From: a virus
Lineage: Duplodnaviria > Heunggongvirae > Uroviricota > Caudoviricetes
Virus record (IMG/VR): IMGVR_UViG_2703719355_000014
Span: 1-11,462 of that record
Reading direction: 5' to 3' (one strand)
DNA: 11,462 nt
A program made the translations under genes and the position numbers. Below, one piece after another: positions 3,067 through 10,533 of this stretch (positions are counted from its first letter, which is position 1; each line of letters opens with the position of its first letter). The notes below the pieces were generated by a model that was given only the letters and a program-made list of their open reading frames with translations, did not search any database and had not been told where the DNA came from.

Positions 3067-3217
3067 GCGTCCCCCTTCTGACCATAACCAGTGCACCCAC
3101 CAGCAGTAAAGCACCGGACAAAATCAGAGCCGGAGCCATACCAAACTGCAGGTAAACTCCGCACGTAAGCAGGCCAAAACCAGTCAGCCCGATAACATCA
3201 GCAATTAGTGATTTCAT
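3056..3217 (-). CDS. Hypothetical small membrane protein (53 aa), candidate only
   Basis: Not in the ORF track (below cut-off). Its ATG at 3217-3215 overlaps the terminase large subunit TGA stop (3216-3214) as ATGA, suggesting translational coupling. Translation [53 protein letters not shown] has two hydrophobic helix-like segments and a basic C-terminus. No clear Shine-Dalgarno; overlaps the portal 5' end in another frame. Confidence 0.3.
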
Positions 3218-4935
3218 AGAATTAAGAGATCATCGTCCGGATCAAGAGATGAGAGGAAATCGCCAGGTTCTTTGAGCATTGCCCGACCGATCGTCATAAT
3301 CAGTGCAACCGCACCATCGATTTTGTTTTCCGCCTGCTCCTTGACGGGCTTCACTAAATCATCGTTACCAGGCATGTTTTTGCCGACCACATTGCCGATA
3401 CACCAGGTCATGATGGGATTGCCGTCATGATGAAAGCGTCCCGATTCAATCGCTGCTTCCAGCTCTTTCATCGGATCGGACATATTGGCGAAGTTCTGGA
3501 CGATAGTGACGGGATTCAGATCTTCATCAGCAAGGTCATGTGACAGCCCGGTCGCCCCGAAGGGGTCGATGGGTGACTCACTGACCGGGCTGATTTTGTT
3601 CGCCGCTTTGGCCTAGCGATAATCCACCTCTGCACCATCGGTAACGGTCAGGACGCCCATTTCCACCCATTTCTGAAAGCGTTCGGCTGTCCGTCTATCT
3701 TCATTTTTCTCGACGCTGTACACCGTGTCATACGGTACCCAGAAGCGCGGGGCCACACTGTAGTAATGCGTTTTACCGTCAATCTCGCGGGTATAAAGTC
3801 GCGCCATGCTGTTCATATCCAGCTTACGCGCCAGGTCAAAGGCCAGAATGCACGGCTGCCCCTCGAACTGCTCAAGGGTCAGTGATTTATCCTCGCAGCT
3901 CTGCCAGCTCACCAGGTTGAAATACGCCGAACGTGCCGACACCCAGATATTGAGGTGTTTCGTTTTAAAGACGTTTGCCAGACGGGCGTTATTTTTCGCA
4001 CGCTGCTGCTGACTTAACAAAAATTCGCGATAAACCGACACGCCAATATTTGGATTGGCTTTTTCCAGCACCTGCGGGTCGGTCCAGTCGTCACCTTCAT
4101 CAACGGTATAGATGATCCCGAACAGTTCATCGTTAGGCACCGAGCCGTTGAGCATCTCGATGACTTCCCGCCGCTTGTCGTAGCACAGCCCCTCAATGTT
4201 GTACCCGGCGGTGGTGATGGCCCACATCAGTGGCTGACGTCGCGCCCCCATCCCGGTAAGCATTGTGGTATAAAGCGCATCGGTGGCATGCTCGTGATAT
4301 TCATCAACCACGGCACAGTGGGGTGATGAACCATCACCGGGGTTACCGATCAGCGGTTCAAACCGCGCGCCATCCTCCGGACGGTTCATGTTTGAGGCGT
4401 TAACCTCAATCCCGAACGCTTCCGTCAGCATGGGTGTGCGTTTACACATCAGTCGCGCCGGGCGAAAGACTTCCCACGCCTGTTTCTCTGTCGTGGCACC
4501 GGAATACACTTCCGCGCCAAACTCGTTATCACAGGCAAAACAATACAGGGCAACACCGGCAGAGATTGCTGATTTGCCGTTCTTACGGGGGATTTCGGTA
4601 TACACCTCCCGGAAGCGGCGCAACCGGGTGCCTTTATTGACCCAGCCAAACGCACAGCAGATCACAAATAGCTGCCACGGCTCCAGCGTGATGGGCATCC
4701 GTTTGAATGCCCACTCACCCTTGGTGTGCGGCAACAGCTGAATAAATTTCGCGGCCCGTTCAGCCAGGTCCTTGTCGAAGCGGTAACGAAACGACTTACT
4801 TTTTTCCGCCATCAGGTCATCAAGATGGCACTGGCAGGCCTGAATCACAAACTGGCAGGCAACAATCTTTCCGCGCACGACATCCCGGGCATACTGATTG
4901 GCAGCATTTACGTTGGGGTAAGATTTCCGGCTCAT
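3214..4935 (-). CDS. Terminase large subunit, interrupted by one in-frame TAG at 3613-3615 (possible pseudogene, suppressed amber or sequencing error)
   Basis: ORFs 3613..4935 (440 aa) and 3214..3483 are in the same frame. I translated 3484-3612 by hand and it is open in that frame (…[55 protein letters not shown]…), so a single TAG separates the two parts. Read through, the product is about 573 aa, a typical size. Its ATG overlaps the terminase small subunit stop (ATGA at 4935-4932). Confidence 0.8.
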
Positions 4936-5426
4936 GACTCGATGATTTTCAGAAACGGGTTAGTGGCTTTCTTCTTCCCCGCCAGGCCAATCAGACGCTG
5001 GCGGCTGCTGGGGTCGAGTCCGAGCATTGCCCCCGTGCTGCTCATCTCGGACTCCTGTTCTTTCTTGGCGGTCAGCTCCGGGTTTTTGACCATACCGCCC
5101 ATTGCACCGGTAATGGTGTTGCCCTGGCTGGCAATATTTTTCACGGCACGTCGCCAGAACTCATAGGCCACGCACCACCGCTCAAGCACCGCGAGGTCAG
5201 TCACGCACAGCAGGCCCTGACCGCAGAGTTCTTTGGTTGTCAGTTGCCACATGATCGTGGCGAGAGGGAGATCTTCTTCAGCGAACCACTCCGGTGGCTC
5301 AACACCTTTGATGGGCGTAAAAACAGGTTCATCTTTATTCAGGGCTCGCTTGCCGGGGTTTCCGGCCAGCGCCTTGCGCGCCGTTGGCTTGGGGCGACGC
5401 CCGGAACGCCCCGCCGTTCCAGCCAT
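4932..5426 (-). CDS. Terminase small subunit (P27-like family)
   Basis: Basic N-terminus [14 protein letters not shown]..., located immediately upstream of and overlapping the large terminase. The ATG at 5426 has an AGGAG Shine-Dalgarno 8 nt upstream; the ORF-track start at 5435 is a GTG without better support. Confidence 0.75.
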
Positions 5427-5435
5427 ATGCGGCAC

Positions 5436-5551
5436 TCCTGGTTAAATTTCATTTTTCGCGGGTATAAAAAAACGATGGGGCGGGCAGTCCGGAAGACGTC
5501 AGGTCACAGGGATTTGACCCGCCCCTCCCCTCAGACAGTTGAGAATTATTA
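5436..5551. other. Candidate cos / packaging-site region (GC-rich dyad between HNH and terminase small subunit)
   Basis: Intergenic segment with GGGGCGGG (5477-5484) and its exact reverse complement CCCGCCCC (5518-5525), an inner GGTCA/TGACC repeat (5502-5506 / 5514-5518) and a GACGTC palindrome (5496-5501). In HK97-like phages cos lies between the HNH gene and the small terminase gene. On the minus strand the dyad is followed by TTTTTTTAT, so a terminator or attenuator is an alternative reading. Confidence 0.3.
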
Positions 5552-5902
5552 TCACTTTAACCGTTCACGGGCCGTCTTCGCCTTATGGCAGGGCCAGCAC
5601 AGACTCTGCAGATTACTGTCGGCATCAGTGCCGCCATGCGCTTTAGGAACGATGTGGTCAACGGTTTTCGCCTCACGCACCACACCAGCATGCAGACATG
5701 ACTGACACAGGCCTTTGTCACGCTTCAGCACACGTCCACGGATGACGTCCCATTTCGCACCATAACCGCGCTGGTGTCGGGACTGGCCTGGCTTGTATTG
5801 CTTCCAGCCTTCGCTTTTGTGGCTTTCGCAGTAGCCTGACGGGTCTGTAGTGGTATTACGGCAGCCGCGAACGCGGCAGGCTTTTGGGATTCGTGATGGC
5901 AT
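5552..5902 (-). CDS. HNH endonuclease (terminase-associated)
   Basis: Zinc-binding HNH motif (CQSCLH...VDHIVPKAHGG...NLQSLCWPCHKAK). The ATG at 5902 has a GGAG Shine-Dalgarno 5 nt upstream; the ORF-track N-terminal extension to 6001 has no support. Position directly upstream of the terminase genes matches the HK97 arrangement. Confidence 0.8.
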   Translation of the reverse strand: MPSRIPKACRVRGCRNTTTDPSGYCESHKSEGWKQYKPGQSRHQRGYGAKWDVIRGRVLKRDKGLCQSCLHAGVVREAKTVDHIVPKAHGGTDADSNLQSLCWPCHKAKTARERLK

Positions 5903-6022
5903 ATGTACTCCAATGAAGAAGCCACCGACATAGCCTCCTCCATTCATCGTGAAACTATTTTCATCTACGCAGTCATGAATTCTTTGTAGAGTTGTGATCA
6001 ATACAACTCACTAATGGAGAGG

Positions 6023-6044
6023 CTTGTCCAACACGTTGGACAAG
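6023..6044. repeat. Palindrome CTTGTCCAAC-AC-GTTGGACAAG (10-bp arms)
   Basis: Perfect 10-bp inverted-repeat arms separated by 2 nt, lying in the 425-bp non-coding region between the HNH start and bor. Could be an operator-like protein binding site or a stable hairpin; function unknown. Confidence 0.4.
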
Positions 6045-6124
6045 TTTCCTGTTTGATTTACTGGACACTATAGAAGGACAGAATGCCTTCCTCACTCGAA
6101 TAACATTAATTAAGGAGGTTCAAC

Positions 6125-6247
6125 ATGTTTCATTCCACAAATCATCAGGCTGTAATTATGGCTGTATCAGTTTGTGCCACAGACCTTTTCCGCTTCACTT
6201 TGAGCCTGATTCATTTCTACCTGACCGGCTCGCCTCTATCTTTTTAA
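6125..6247 (+). CDS. Hypothetical small hydrophobic protein (40 aa), candidate only
   Basis: Near-consensus Shine-Dalgarno TAAGGAGGT 5 nt upstream of the ATG at 6125. Translation MFHSTNHQAVIMAVSVCATDLFRFTLSLIHFYLTGSPLSF has one hydrophobic segment. Below the ORF-track length cut-off; same strand as bor and upstream of it. Confidence 0.3.
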   Translation: MFHSTNHQAVIMAVSVCATDLFRFTLSLIHFYLTGSPLSF

Positions 6248-6427
6248 TCCCCGCTTTATCCAAATTGCATTGCCAGAATGCCGACAACAGACTGACATTC
6301 AAATCCTGACTACCTCCAATAGTCTGACCGTACACCTATATAGTTTTAAATTTCATCAATCCATTTAACTATCGTTTAATTGTTGTCACATAGGATTCTG
6401 CCGTTTTTAACAATGCAGGATAATAAG

Positions 6428-6721
6428 ATGAAAAAAATGTTGTTTTCTGCCGCTCTGGCAATGCTTATTACAGGATGTGCTCAACAGACGTTTACTGTTG
6501 GAAACAAACCGACAGCAGTAACACCAAAGGAAACCATCACCCATCATTTCTTCGTTTCGGGAATTGGACAGGAGAAAACTGTTGATGCAGCCAAAATTTG
6601 TGGCGGCGCAGAAAATGTTGTTAAAACAGAAACCCAGCAAACATTCGTAAATGGATTGCTCGGTTTTATTACTTTAGGCATTTATACTCCGCTGGAAGCG
6701 CGTGTGTATTGCTCACAATAA
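6428..6721 (+). CDS. bor: Bor lipoprotein (lambda Bor-like, serum-resistance lipoprotein family)
   Basis: Translation from the ATG at 6428 (MKKMLFSAALAMLITGCAQQTFTV...) has a signal peptide and LITGC lipobox, is 97 aa, and matches lambda Bor closely from memory. AGGA Shine-Dalgarno 7 nt upstream. Opposite strand to the lysis genes, as in lambda. Confidence 0.9.
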   Translation: MKKMLFSAALAMLITGCAQQTFTVGNKPTAVTPKETITHHFFVSGIGQEKTVDAAKICGGAENVVKTETQQTFVNGLLGFITLGIYTPLEARVYCSQ

Positions 6722-6731
6722 TTGCATGAGT

Positions 6732-6752: not shown

Positions 6753-7214
6753 CTATCTGCACTGCTCATTAATATACTTCTGGGTTCCTTCCAGTTGTTT
6801 TTGCATAGTGATCAGCCTCTCTCTGAGGGTGAAATAATCCCGTTCAGCGGTGTCTGCCAGTCGGGGGGAGGCTGCATTATCCACGCCGGAGGCGGTGGTG
6901 GCTTCACGCACTGACTGACAGACTGCTTTGATGTGCAACCGACGACGACCAGCGGCAACATCATCACGCAGAGCATCATTTTCAGCTTTCGCATCAGCTA
7001 ACTCCTTCGTGTATTTTGCATCGAGCGCAGCAACATCACGCTGGCGCACCTGCATGTCAGTAATTGTCGAGTTCGCCAGCTTCAGTTCTCTGGCATTTTT
7101 GTCGCGCTGGGCTTTGTAGGTAATGGCGTTATCGCGGTAATGATTAACAGCCCATGACAGGCAGACGATGATGCAGATAACCAGAGCGGAGATAATCGCG
7201 GTTACTCTGCTCAT
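6753..7214 (-). CDS. Rz: Rz i-spanin (inner-membrane spanin subunit)
   Basis: 153 aa with an N-terminal TM segment and coiled-coil periplasmic domain; nearly identical to lambda Rz from memory. Overlaps the R stop and contains Rz1 embedded in the +1 frame. Confidence 0.9.
6812..6994 (-). CDS. Rz1: Rz1 o-spanin (outer-membrane lipoprotein spanin subunit), embedded in Rz
   Basis: 60-aa ORF wholly inside Rz in another frame. Signal peptide with VVGC lipobox and a proline-rich mature region (PPPPPAW...PPPDW), as in lambda Rz1. Confidence 0.85.
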
Positions 7215-7687
7215 ACCTCAATCTCTCTGACCGTTCCGCCTGCTTCTTTGAATTTTGCAATCAGGCTGTCAGCCTTATGCTCGAACTGACCATAACCAGC
7301 ACCCGGCAGTGAAGCCCAGATATTGCTGCAACGGTCAATTGCCTGACGAATATCACCGCGATCAATCATCGGTAAAGCGCCACACTCTTTAATCTGCTGC
7401 AGAGCTACAGCGTCCTGGCTTTCTGGAGAAAAATCTTTCAGGCCAAGCTGTTTACGGTAAGCATCCCACCAGCGTGAAAGAAGCTGGTAACGTCCGGCGG
7501 CTGTTGACTTGAGTTTCGGGTTTAGCGTGACAAGTTTGCGAGGGTGATCGGAGTAATCAGTGAAGAGTTCACCACCAACAATAACGTCATAACCGTGGTT
7601 ACGTGTCGGTTGTCGTCCGTTATCCGTTCCTTCTGACCAAGCCACCATATCGAGGAAAGCTTTACGCTGGGAATTTAGTACCTGCAT
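7211..7687 (-). CDS. R: Endolysin R (lambda-type lytic transglycosylase)
   Basis: 158 aa, [26 protein letters not shown]...; nearly identical to lambda R over its full length from memory. Sits between holin and Rz. Confidence 0.9.
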
Positions 7688-7690
7688 AAA

Positions 7691-8017
7691 TTACTCCTTA
7701 GAGCCACCAAATTTGTTACCGATTACTCGCATTGCAGCCCCACGAATAGCATTGACACCGATCAGCCCCACCCCACCACCAATGGCAACAGATAGTGATT
7801 TAGGCCATCCGACATACTCAAGAGCGGATGCAAAAGTCAGCGTCAGAGCACCACAGAGTAGAATTTCGAGTGTTTTTCGCTTCCAGCCGCCACCACCGCC
7901 AAAATAGGCAATACGTAAACCAGCCATAACAATCGACATAATCACTGCGCCCAGCGGTGTGTCTCCACGCCACCAGCTCTGGACCAACTCCAGCCAGGTA
8001 TTTGGGTTATGAGGCAT
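7691..8017 (-). CDS. S: Holin, lambda S family (class I)
   Basis: 108 aa with hydrophobic helices and a basic C-terminal tail. Pattern resembles lambda S (…MAGLRIAYFGGGG… against lambda …MAYLRGRYNGG…). Immediately upstream of R. Confidence 0.8.
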   Translation of the reverse strand: MPHNPNTWLELVQSWWRGDTPLGAVIMSIVMAGLRIAYFGGGGGWKRKTLEILLCGALTLTFASALEYVGWPKSLSVAIGGGVGLIGVNAIRGAAMRVIGNKFGGSKE

Positions 8018-8159: not shown

Positions 8160-8188
8160 AGAAACGACAAACCCGCTCGACGGCGGGT
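8160..8188 (-). terminator. Candidate intrinsic terminator (tR'-like) on the minus strand
   Basis: Stem ACCCGC/GCGGGT (8171-8176 / 8183-8188) with a 6-nt loop. On the minus strand it is followed by TTGTCGTTTCT. It lies about 210 nt downstream of the candidate late promoter, comparable to the lambda pR'-tR' spacing. Confidence 0.3.
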
Positions 8189-8401
8189 TTAAGCTGTGTG
8201 GCGAAGTGACCACTCTTAACACGATACAATAGTTTTTGCGTACGCGTTAGCATTTTTGATGGAAGTTAATGGTTGTTAATCTTATACTCAGTAAACAAAA
8301 TTTATGCCGCCTTGAGCATGATGCGACATTAGGCACATGTTTGGATCTTCCTCGAAGATTCGTGCGGTAGCTATGCTCAAAATCCAATCAGCTCATAAAA
8401 C

Positions 8402-8430
8402 ATACTATGGGTTTTAAATGCTCATTCCAA
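8402..8430 (-). promoter_or_regulatory. Candidate sigma70 late promoter (pR'-like) on the minus strand
   Basis: Minus-strand TTGGAA (-35; plus 8425-8430), 17-nt spacer, TAGTAT (-10; plus 8402-8407). Overlaps the start codon of the first cassette gene on the other strand. Found by eye only and lies in AT-rich DNA where such matches arise by chance. Confidence 0.2.
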
Positions 8431-9167
8431 CATCTCTATCAAAACAACCAGTAATCGAAGCTGCTTTCGAAATGCGTTTTTCTAAAGAAACACAAATATC
8501 GGAAATAGTTCCAGGGTTTCTTTTTCACGCTCTAGGTTGTACAAAACCAGTAATTAGTTTACCACCCAGTCAAATACCTAAAAATGTTCGTGAGGGAGAT
8601 GAACAATTACATTACGCAGTTGTCAGTCGCCTCGAAATCGAAGGGTACTATATTGGACTAAGTGACCATGGTGTTGTTGTATCCACCAGCACCAAATATC
8701 AAGGGTGGAGTCATTTTAGAGAAAAAATCATTCATGTATTAAATGAGCTTAACAAATTAAATTTAAATGACAACATCATCCGCTACTCATTAAAGTATGT
8801 AGATTTTTTCCCAAAAGAAGACGATTCTAATTTATTTGATAAGCTAAACGTCAGCTTAAATATGGCTGGCGAGTCTATGTCTAATTATCCGATCAATATC
8901 AGAATCGATAAAAATGAAGGCGCATTTCTAAATATAATTCAAATATTATCTCATGCTTTAGTCATGTCAGATAATGGAGAATTTAATAAAAAAGGACTAA
9001 TCCTAGACATAGACAGTATTAGGCAAATCACTAATACTGATGAAATAGATAAGTTTAAAAACGAACCCAAAAAAATTCTTGATGATCTTCACTCCTGTAA
9101 TAAATTAGCTTTCTTTAGTTGCCTTAAAGAGTCAACAATTCAAGAACTAGAACCATCCTACAAATAG
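8418..9167 (+). CDS. Hypothetical protein (249 aa), first gene of AT-rich cassette
   Basis: Long ORF on the strand opposite to the phage late operon, with Asn/Lys/Ile-rich composition typical of low-GC DNA. TAG stop. No catalytic motif recognised; weak GGG-type RBS only. Confidence 0.7.
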   Translation: MLIPTSLSKQPVIEAAFEMRFSKETQISEIVPGFLFHALGCTKPVISLPPSQIPKNVREGDEQLHYAVVSRLEIEGYYIGLSDHGVVVSTSTKYQGWSHFREKIIHVLNELNKLNLNDNIIRYSLKYVDFFPKEDDSNLFDKLNVSLNMAGESMSNYPINIRIDKNEGAFLNIIQILSHALVMSDNGEFNKKGLILDIDSIRQITNTDEIDKFKNEPKKILDDLHSCNKLAFFSCLKESTIQELEPSYK

Positions 9168-9182
9168 AAATGGTGGTATGAT

Positions 9183-9527
9183 ATGTATCCGTCTCATCAT
9201 GTTTATCGAGCTCAACTTCAAGTATTAACTTTGGTTTTATATGGTCTGCATATAACAGCATTAACAGACATTGCCCAAAATCAACAGCATGGTCCTCAAC
9301 AAAGTTTAATCGTCAAAAATCACGCTTTGGAGTATAAGTCTTCAACTACCGATTCAGTTCATTCCATCACACAAACATATAAAGCAGGGAGCACAATCTC
9401 AGTTGATCAAAGACTTGCAGTCTCGATGACAAACTTTTATGAAAAATTATCAACAAACCAGGTGTCTTTAGGCAGTGAAATAAATAAAGTCGTTCATGCT
9501 TCACTGTGGGATTTATACTTGGATTAA
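9183..9527 (+). CDS. Hypothetical protein (114 aa), second cassette gene
   Basis: ATG at 9183 is preceded by a GGTGG Shine-Dalgarno 6 nt upstream and lies 15 nt after the upstream stop. N-terminal hydrophobic stretch (LQVLTLVLYGLHITAL) may be a membrane anchor. Stop TAA at 9525-9527. Confidence 0.6.
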   Translation: MYPSHHVYRAQLQVLTLVLYGLHITALTDIAQNQQHGPQQSLIVKNHALEYKSSTTDSVHSITQTYKAGSTISVDQRLAVSMTNFYEKLSTNQVSLGSEINKVVHASLWDLYLD

Positions 9528-9530
9528 GTG

Positions 9531-10145
9531 ATGAGTAATAACATTTTTGATATCGAGAAATTCAAAGATCAAATTCCATATTATTTAACAGCTCCTCAAA
9601 AAGAAGGGCTAATAAATGCACTTAGAGATTTCCCTGAAAACACTAACTACTACCTTACCAATTATCATGATGATCTGAAAAATGCTGCACTTCAGGGAGA
9701 TATATTTAAGGAGCTTACAGTATATTCAATTAAAGGGACTAAAAAAACACGAGGAATTATATTAAGCAACAGTTGCGATATAGATACAAGTAATAATCGT
9801 GATGTGCCAATGCGTGCAGTCTTTGCTCCGTTAGTAAGTTTATCTAAGTTCGAAGCTATTCTTCTCTCCAACGGAGTTTCTAAGACTTCAATAGATAGCA
9901 AAATTGATGCTATAAGGAAGCAGTTAATTACTAATATTTTTTATCTTCCTGAATCAGACAACTTAGAAGAATGCATCGTTTTTCTTGATGATGTATACCA
10001 ATTACCAACGGAAGAATTACAAAAACTCTTGAATGATAAATGCAAAGCCATAACTTTAAGTCAAGTTGGTTTCTACATTTTACTATTCAAAATATCTATT
10101 CACTTTTGTAGATTCCATGAAAACATACAACGATTCGATCATTAA
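9531..10145 (+). CDS. Hypothetical protein (204 aa), third cassette gene
   Basis: Start ATG 9531 (or GTG 9528) immediately follows the upstream TAA, giving TAAGTGATG and suggesting translational coupling. No recognisable domain. TAA stop directly followed by an intrinsic terminator. Confidence 0.7.
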   Translation: MSNNIFDIEKFKDQIPYYLTAPQKEGLINALRDFPENTNYYLTNYHDDLKNAALQGDIFKELTVYSIKGTKKTRGIILSNSCDIDTSNNRDVPMRAVFAPLVSLSKFEAILLSNGVSKTSIDSKIDAIRKQLITNIFYLPESDNLEECIVFLDDVYQLPTEELQKLLNDKCKAITLSQVGFYILLFKISIHFCRFHENIQRFDH

Positions 10146-10172
10146 GGCGGTACTACCGCCTTTTATTATTTT
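10144..10172 (+). terminator. Rho-independent terminator of the cassette operon
   Basis: AAGGCGG-tacta-CCGCCTT stem-loop directly followed by TTTTATTATTTT on the plus strand. The T-tract overlaps the stop codon of the convergent Q gene. Confidence 0.6.
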
Positions 10173-10515
10173 ACACAAGTATACTTACAACCCCCTCTAT
10201 AAAACCGATTGCGGTTTGCAACTCCTTCCTAATAGTGCCATCAGAGCACCTTCTCTTTTTGGCAATAGTGCGTAATGAGATACCAATAACAAAGTGGGCT
10301 ATGATGAGCTCATATTCCTCTGGTTTATACCTTCTCAACCGAGCCACACAACTGTCTATCATAATGCCTTCGTCATCATCACACTGAATCCGTGACTTTT
10401 TGCCATGAGGTAAAAGCCCCTTGAAGCCTGCTGCTACCGGCTGCCAGTCCACACCACTGTTGTCTGCTGCAGCCCATGCTCCCCAGCGGTCCAATACTTC
10501 ATACATATCACGCAT
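10171..10515 (-). CDS. Late-gene antitermination protein Q (QuuD-like, Phage_antitermQ family)
   Basis: Translation from the ATG at 10515 (MRDMYEVLDRWGAWAAADNSGVDWQPVAAGFKGL...CSDGTIRKELQTAIGFIEG...) resembles the DLP12 QuuD-type Q proteins as I recall them. GGAG Shine-Dalgarno 7 nt upstream; the ORF-track TTG start at 10530 is less likely. Confidence 0.75.
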   Translation of the reverse strand: MRDMYEVLDRWGAWAAADNSGVDWQPVAAGFKGLLPHGKKSRIQCDDDEGIMIDSCVARLRRYKPEEYELIIAHFVIGISLRTIAKKRRCSDGTIRKELQTAIGFIEGVVSILV

Positions 10516-10533
10516 CAACTTACTCCACAAAAA

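Follow-up and report, generated by a model that had tools for sequence, protein, structure and literature searches.

Many toxin-antitoxin operons run from antitoxin to toxin, with the toxin gene last, and in tripartite toxin-antitoxin systems a third protein controls the toxin-antitoxin pair. Several described systems come close to the locus analyzed here. The effector of type II Gabija (Liu-DS1), a validated abortive-infection system, is GajC, in which a MazF-like fold is interrupted by helices (PMC13069673), and such folds are thus used in defense. HEC-07 (Payne et al., 2024, bioRxiv 10.1101/2024.01.29.577857) combines an AdoMetDC-like domain and a RelE RNase in a single polypeptide. Rst_3HP (“hp + hp + hp”) of Escherichia coli E1114 consists of three domain-less genes in a P2 hotspot that protect against phage P1 (PMC9122126). 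The locus in question is a plus-strand block of three genes, A, B, and C (8418–10145), in the IMG/VR virus record IMGVR_UViG_2703719355_000014, and the 11,462 nucleotides of that record analyzed here (“the window”) are the late region of an E. coli lambdoid prophage. At a probability of roughly 0.5, we consider A-B-C to be a mobile tripartite toxin-antitoxin-like module for abortive infection or superinfection exclusion, with C as the effector, B as the neutralizer or adaptor, and A as the control subunit.

Gene A (8418–9167, plus strand) is an ATG-to-stop open reading frame (ORF) for a soluble protein of 249 amino acids (~28 kDa), and the identical RefSeq entry, WP_000907077.1, is named “TIGR04255 family protein”. 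An earlier note on this DNA, made from the sequence without database searches, had proposed this ORF and had mentioned a resemblance to TIGR04255 as too uncertain to assert. The ORF was borne out and the resemblance proved to be real, as the NCBIfam profile TIGR04255 aligned residues 7–244 with profile positions 2–251/252 (E 2.6e-27) and scored 96.2 bits, compared to a curated whole-protein cut-off of 30 bits. The same profile matched 65 out of 65 sampled diverse relatives of gene A (best E 6.5e-43), and gene A also matched phrog_5464 (E 3e-132). In single-sequence and profile searches, Pfam, PADLOC, and PDB sequences gave no match to gene A. The earlier statement that the protein has no assignable domain consequently stands for Pfam but not for NCBIfam, where the match is full length.

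Other features that the earlier note had ascribed to the protein were likewise recovered. It is the largest of the cassette (249 amino acids versus 114 for B and 204–205 for C), its grand average of hydropathy (−0.26) agrees with solubility, and its overall isoelectric point (pI) is 5.5. The C-terminal half is acidic and rich in Asn and Lys (pI 4.86, N+K 20%, D+E 16.8%) compared to the N-terminal half (pI 6.50, N+K 10%, D+E 10.5%). No nuclease or ATPase signature was recognized, as the Walker A motif was not found and neither of the two R-x(4-6)-H strings falls on a family-conserved His, leaving no conserved HEPN-type motif. Helix-turn-helix and ribbon-helix-helix domains were also not detected in gene A. 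The protein matched no housekeeping family and is strongly conserved across homologs, so that neither of the two outcomes named in the earlier note as refuting its reading was observed.

This conservation extends from close to distant relatives. Seventeen enterobacterial orthologs (46–77% identity) align end to end with gene A, their reading frames intact, and 58 columns of the alignment are invariant. When 1.8 billion cluster representatives were searched with a profile, 2046 matched at E ≤ 1e-3, of which 337 reached E ≤ 1e-30, and almost all of the matches are ~250 amino acids long. The relatives are single-domain proteins of 240–270 amino acids, apart from a few longer ones with N-terminal extensions. 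The longer N-termini of five relatives were considered as fused domains, but they are not conserved among the five and look like miscalled starts. Judged by sequence, gene A is a genuine conserved gene and a member of the functionally blank TIGR04255 family.

Gene A does not travel alone. In all related loci with enough flanking DNA, the order is A (~250 amino acids), B (~95–127 amino acids), and C (~200–210 amino acids). Lambdoid prophages of Klebsiella and Yersinia carry the triad in the same slot, and in the P2-like Pseudomonas phage Dobby it adjoins the portal gene. In phage VW-6S it directly follows the gene for the cI repressor. It also occurs on metagenome contigs whose A is 33–35% identical to that of the window, and beside an integrase-like ORF on a plasmid of Phocaeicola (Bacteroidota). 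Conserved motifs of gene C were used to gather 80 loci from one-genome-per-species contigs, with taxa including Pseudomonadota, Desulfobacterota, Bacteroidota, Myxococcota, and Muiribacteriota. An A-family ORF lies upstream on the same strand in 78 of these 80 loci, and the two exceptions have no upstream DNA. The gap between A and C is B-sized (243–379 bp) in 74 out of 78; in the remaining four, either the gap is wider or the match to A is truncated. In pairwise comparisons with the proteins of the window, A and C diverge in step (identities of 65/64, 46/50, 32/43, and 33/32% for A/C) and B diverges much faster. Neighboring triad genes abut or overlap at their start and stop codons, an arrangement suggestive of co-translation. 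The flanks are heterogeneous, with 140 Pfam families among 148 flanking ORFs, the commonest being integrase. Because the A-B-C synteny is strict, A and C co-diverge, and the flanks are unrelated, the triad is a unit of selection and transfer and is horizontally mobile.

A few copies depart from the intact arrangement. In one of the gathered loci (L113, 3027–6600), A and C are ~2.1 kb apart, perhaps because of an insertion, and in three others (L046, L077, and L114) the A matches are truncated; such occasional disruption may show which genes are dispensable. In the IMG/VR record UViG_2547132254_000004 (5001–6723), A matches residues 1–221 only and C residues 72–204 only while B is intact, which reflects either decay of this copy of the cassette or a fault in the assembly. 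The E. coli plasmid p4D31-5 (CP085522.1; 41 kb, non-mobilizable) carries an unannotated A-like fragment (4001–4588; 47.5% identity, residues 18–219). For the A homologs of Dobby (1117–2786) and VW-6S (4001–5644), the GenBank coding-sequence starts at 1483 and 4097 look too far downstream compared to tblastn matches from 1117 and 4001, respectively, and appear to be annotation errors. A 46-amino-acid ORF labeled “integrase” that overlaps the position of B in VW-6S is another apparent annotation error.

Gene C (9531–10145, plus strand) encodes 204 amino acids and is the candidate effector. RefSeq starts the protein at the ATG at 9531, and an alternative in-frame start, GTG, lies at 9528 (204–205 amino acids). 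The predicted fold has the SH3-like barrel of the MazF/PemK/CcdB toxin superfamily, that is, a core resembling MazF, Kid, and CcdB, to which an N-terminal helical region and inserted helices are added. A total of 469 homologs were detected, and none of the 120 listed has a Pfam domain. Invariant motifs among them are IPYYLT, LQGD, GIILSNSCD, N-x-R-x-x-P, FAP, and TLSQxGFYLFLFKLSIHFCRFHE. The earlier note had regarded gene A as the likeliest effector or sensor of the module. Since the predicted toxin fold belongs to C and none of the similarities of A are effector-like, A is probably not the effector and this label should move from A to C, whereas the sensor part of the proposal is still a candidate.

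Gene B (9183–9527, plus strand) is an ORF of 114 amino acids that is small, fast-evolving, and located directly upstream of C. When ORFs were taken from the gaps between A and C, 77 B-like sequences were obtained, of which 47 were detected by phmmer with the B of the window; on sequence grounds, the 77 are one family. B is only 29–32% identical to the protein of the window where A and C are ~65% identical. The C-terminal ~45 amino acids are conserved (FE..i..FYa.Ll..QEPLG.EFEkVL.eNLWDLYES) and end in LWDLY, while the N-terminal half is variable and includes a borderline-hydrophobic 17-mer (median Kyte-Doolittle value of the best 17-residue window, 1.63). Because its position, size, and evolutionary rate fit such a role, B is a candidate neutralizer or adaptor. 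In MazEF, the C-terminal tail of MazE sits in the groove of MazF, and the conserved Trp-containing tail of B may likewise occupy a groove of C. The gene B profile gave no consistent match in Pfam or PDB. A match to Med11 (E 0.06), alongside matches of gene A to Med18/20, was weak and was taken as a coincidence.

The remaining question is what A contributes. The fold search that the earlier note had suggested gave a confident AlphaFold model of A, with a predicted local distance difference test score (pLDDT) of 88.8 and a predicted template modeling score of 0.86, but its Foldseek matches were remote, the top ones being AdoMetDC/prozyme structures at a template modeling (TM) score of only ~0.3. 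The model is a two-layer alpha/beta structure with its elements in the order beta-alpha-alpha-alpha-beta3-alpha-alpha, followed by beta-alpha-beta3-alpha3. Aligning its N-terminal and C-terminal halves to each other with hhalign gave no sequence-level sign of an internal duplication. Fold neighbors also include TBP-like, guanidino-kinase, and ligase-like structures. Membership of A in the phosphagen or protein arginine kinases was rejected, as identities are 6–14% and there is no match to Pfam ATP-gua_Ptrans. Comparisons with Pfam, PDB, and Foldseek allowed no activity to be assigned to A from fold or sequence.

The conserved residues of A are more informative. Those kept family-wide are E18, R20, R58, D83, Y94, W97, R122, S124, K126, Y127, G193, D197, D199, H225, K229, F232, F233, P246, and Y248, and 15 polar or aromatic positions are kept in at least 83% of 166 relatives with a median identity to A of 31%. 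Several of the conserved residues alternate along three predicted beta-strands, and from this spacing we infer that E18, R20, R122, S124, K126, D197, and D199 form one charged patch on a face of the sheet. The pattern would fit an active or ligand-binding site better than a passive scaffold, and we favor a sensor or enzyme over a scaffold because many charged and aromatic positions are conserved at low identity.

Gene A is accordingly treated as probably the control subunit, and not the killing component, of a toxin-antitoxin-like phage-defense cassette. In the mechanism we propose, the triad would be expressed from the prophage, and C would be a toxic effector of MazF/CcdB fold acting in an RNase-like or gyrase-poison-like manner. 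B would use its W-D-L-Y tail and the conserved helix at its C-terminus to restrain C or to bridge the complex. A would be a conserved, non-toxic sensor or small-ligand-binding enzyme that links an infection cue to the release or activation of C, with the putative charged patch named above as its binding or catalytic site. The analysis itself establishes the family membership, the predicted folds, the strict synteny, the mobility, and the variable prophage slot; that C is toxic, what A and B do, and that the triad acts against phages are inferred.

A broader form of this proposal is possible, if more tentative. The triad may represent a widely distributed new anti-phage or abortive-infection system. 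Its TIGR04255 protein, with a sheet like those of TBP, AdoMetDC, and guanidino kinases and a putative conserved charged pocket, would act as a new kind of sensor or as an enzymatic switch and would license a divergent toxin of MazF/CcdB fold. The system would then extend across Pseudomonadota, Desulfobacterota, and Bacteroidota as well as three or more types of temperate phage. The literature searched yielded no publication that describes the triad. In the training data of DefensePredictor, a neighboring gene annotated as TIGR04255 contributes positively (mean Shapley additive explanations (SHAP) value of 1.62 at position 1, n = 9; PMC13092281, Table S3), and this value lends weak external support to a defense association of the family.

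The guanidino-kinase and ligase-like fold neighbors of A also lend themselves to a reading that we regard as unlikely, in which A is an enzymatic antitoxin resembling those of type VII systems. A would then use a nucleotide or phosphoryl donor to modify C or B chemically and so hold the toxin inactive, and infection would interrupt the modification. The control-subunit role for A in a defense module is considered further below, together with the genomic position of the triad.

The position of A-B-C within the prophage is that of a cargo. The minus strand of the window carries the major capsid gene (74–1234), the genes for prohead protease, portal, large terminase, and small terminase, an HNH endonuclease gene (5552–6001), and, further on, Rz/Rz1, lysozyme, and holin genes (6753–8017), the Q antiterminator gene (10171–10530), and a DUF968 gene, while the plus strand carries bor (6380–6721) and the three-gene block. 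The right edge of the cargo slot is the antiterminator gene Q (minus strand), which was identified by Pfam Phage_antitermQ (E 1.4e-44) and by RefSeq. The left edge is a minus-strand segment of ~85 nt (8168–8254) that is common to lambdoid prophages and presumably contains the late promoter, Q-utilization, and terminator region, including a minus-strand terminator-like hairpin at 8191–8168. A three-way alignment showed that homology with other lambdoid prophages ends abruptly at ~8254. The adjoining plus-strand region (8255–8417) is cassette-specific and presumably holds the promoter and 5′ untranslated region of A-B-C. Across 8251–10000 the GC content of the cassette is 0.31–0.38, compared to ~0.49–0.59 in the phage flanks.

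Both ends of the cassette show structural features in the DNA. An imperfect 16-nt inverted repeat (8386–8401 and 8411–8426, 75% complementary) lies over the start codon of gene A and could occlude translation initiation; the scanned upstream regions from Klebsiella, Yersinia, and Dobby had no counterpart. Directly 3′ of C, within the 25-nt gap between the stops of the convergent genes C and Q, an intrinsic-terminator-like hairpin followed by a T-rich run (10144–10162, plus strand) has an 8-bp stem with 5 GC pairs and the tail TTATTATTTT.

The 2-kb block is present at ≥99% identity in 92 out of 5426 complete E. coli genomes, where RefSeq labels its genes as “TIGR04255 family protein” and, twice, “hypothetical protein”. 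In 46 other E. coli genomes, only window positions 8200–8257 are shared with the cassette block. In E. coli HM670 only 8 nt separate the conserved segment from the stop codon of Q and the slot is empty, whereas in E. coli 14EC007 the same slot holds a different, two-gene plus-strand cassette that matches the PADLOC candidate PDC-M53A/B (E 1e-31 and 2e-54; locus 3105–4716). Because the slot is empty in HM670 and occupied by the PDC-M53 match in 14EC007, the A-B-C cassette (~8255–10170) is taken to be one of several interchangeable opposite-strand cargos, and the interval from Q to the late promoter appears to be a cargo hotspot. The view in the earlier note that gene A is part of a module is thereby sustained, as the block occupies a prophage slot that elsewhere holds a defense candidate. 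In HM670, a scabin-related ADP-ribosyltransferase and a subtilase-family B subunit are encoded downstream of the promoter segment. GC is also low (~0.40) in a second patch, where the HNH/terminase block gives way to the lysis genes. This patch contains bor, the other plus-strand gene of the window, which encodes a lipoprotein (Pfam Lambda_Bor, E 1e-30) and is unremarkable as lambdoid cargo.

A cargo with toxin-antitoxin-like architecture, accompanied by integrases and found in diverse mobile contexts, may also be an addiction or stabilization module, or other lysogenic-conversion cargo, that would be of advantage to the mobile element but has no part in anti-phage defense. Omega of omega-epsilon-zeta and PaaR are regulators encoded by the first gene of their operons, and A, with its first-gene position and TBP-like fold, might similarly be a transcriptional regulator. 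We nonetheless hold this to be improbable, as A is acidic and has no detected helix-turn-helix or ribbon-helix-helix domain. Moreover, phages of three unrelated types carry the triad where defense or exclusion genes are classically placed (in the interval from Q to the late promoter, at the portal gene of Dobby, and after cI), and a slot shared with the PADLOC defense candidate PDC-M53 favors defense. That A itself is the effector, regulated by B and C, is very improbable: it is the largest protein, is as conserved as C, and has a conserved, putatively charged patch, but it resembles no nuclease, NADase, pore-former, or other known effector class, and it is C that has the predicted toxin-type fold and the last operon position, the place of the toxin in antitoxin-then-toxin operons.

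The reading of A-B-C as a defense module in which A controls a toxin C must also be set against several observations that weigh on the other side. Gene C has no match in Pfam, PemK or CcdB was found in none of 38 relatives, and hhalign of C against MazF, Kid, EndoA, and CcdB gave a probability of 1.1%; the tie to MazF comes from the predicted fold alone. Residues C193 and H196 of gene C are substituted in the Phocaeicola homolog. For gene B, profile searches of Pfam and PDB detected no AbrB, ribbon-helix-helix, helix-turn-helix, or Phd domain. For gene A, the clustering of conserved residues on one face was deduced from strand periodicity alone, and a literature search with TIGR04255, IPR026349, WP_000907077, and phrog_5464 found no publication. 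When scanned against PADLOC-DB v2.0.0, none of the three proteins reached a match at E ≤ 1, and 82 diverse A/B/C members yielded only six unrelated single hits (E 2e-4 to 9e-3). A promoter scan of the plus strand upstream of A (8255–8417) gave no hit and no strong sigma-70 consensus. Finally, the TerL gene (3214–4935, minus strand) has an in-frame stop at 3613–3615 (“...AEVDYR*AKAANK...”) within a single tblastn high-scoring segment pair (4935–3250) that is 96.5% identical to the intact 577-amino-acid TerL of strain ACN002, and the prophage may be defective or decaying unless the stop is a sequencing error.

The curated family TIGR04255 was already known, and what is new is the obligate A-B-C context of the sampled subfamily and the prophage cargo slot. 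If the proposed role is true, it would be the first function for a curated family with ~2000 sequence clusters at 50% identity, and the triad would be a tripartite toxin-antitoxin-like defense system that is missed by current defense-finding sets of hidden Markov models. The fold of the third component would, in that case, suggest an unexplored mechanism of sensing or enzymatic control. The search for further systems can also make use of the stretch from Q to the late promoter in lambdoid prophages, which would be a site where opposite-strand cargos are swapped in. Interest in the triad would be higher if a defense phenotype and a sensing or enzymatic role of TIGR04255 were confirmed.

Compared to the described systems, the triad shares individual features with several and coincides with none of those considered. 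Gene A has the same length (~250 amino acids) and single-domain architecture as NCBIfam TIGR04255, listed as “sporadTIGR04255”, although the family definition does not include the pairing with B and C that is obligate in the loci sampled here. Rst_3HP resembles the triad in its setting, as the triad is also found in a P2-like phage (Dobby), but its proteins are larger (two of ~330–350 and one of ~225 amino acids, versus 249, 114, and 204). Identity between the two was judged unlikely from protein size and from reading the sequences, not from an alignment. The HEC systems were also rejected as a match, as PADLOC gave no hit for A and the main text of the preprint includes no MazF- or PemK-type system (bioRxiv 10.1101/2024.01.29.577857). 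The HEC-07 model was absent from the PADLOC results for A, B, and C and their family members. The toxin domain of HEC-07 is of RelE type and not of MazF type, and its parallel with the triad is at the level of folds, without direct superposition. None of the units tested with DefensePredictor is annotated as TIGR04255, and its “MAZF” unit is a canonical PemK/MazF toxin (PMC13092281). The partner of GajC is the UvrD-type helicase GajB, whereas the partners of C are a TIGR04255 protein and a small protein, with no helicase. Toxin-antitoxin-SecB chaperone, omega-epsilon-zeta, PaaR-PaaA-ParE, and MqsRAC systems are likewise three-gene operons, but the SecB-like chaperone that is the third component of toxin-antitoxin-chaperone systems has no equivalent in the triad. 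In comparison with MazEF, Kis-Kid, and CcdAB, gene C has no sequence-level similarity to the toxins and is twice as large as MazF, with its N-terminal helical extension and inserted helices, and gene B differs from the antitoxins in having no detected AbrB, ribbon-helix-helix, or Phd-type domain. To the two-gene plan of these pairs, the triad adds an obligatory third, equally conserved gene of 250 amino acids.
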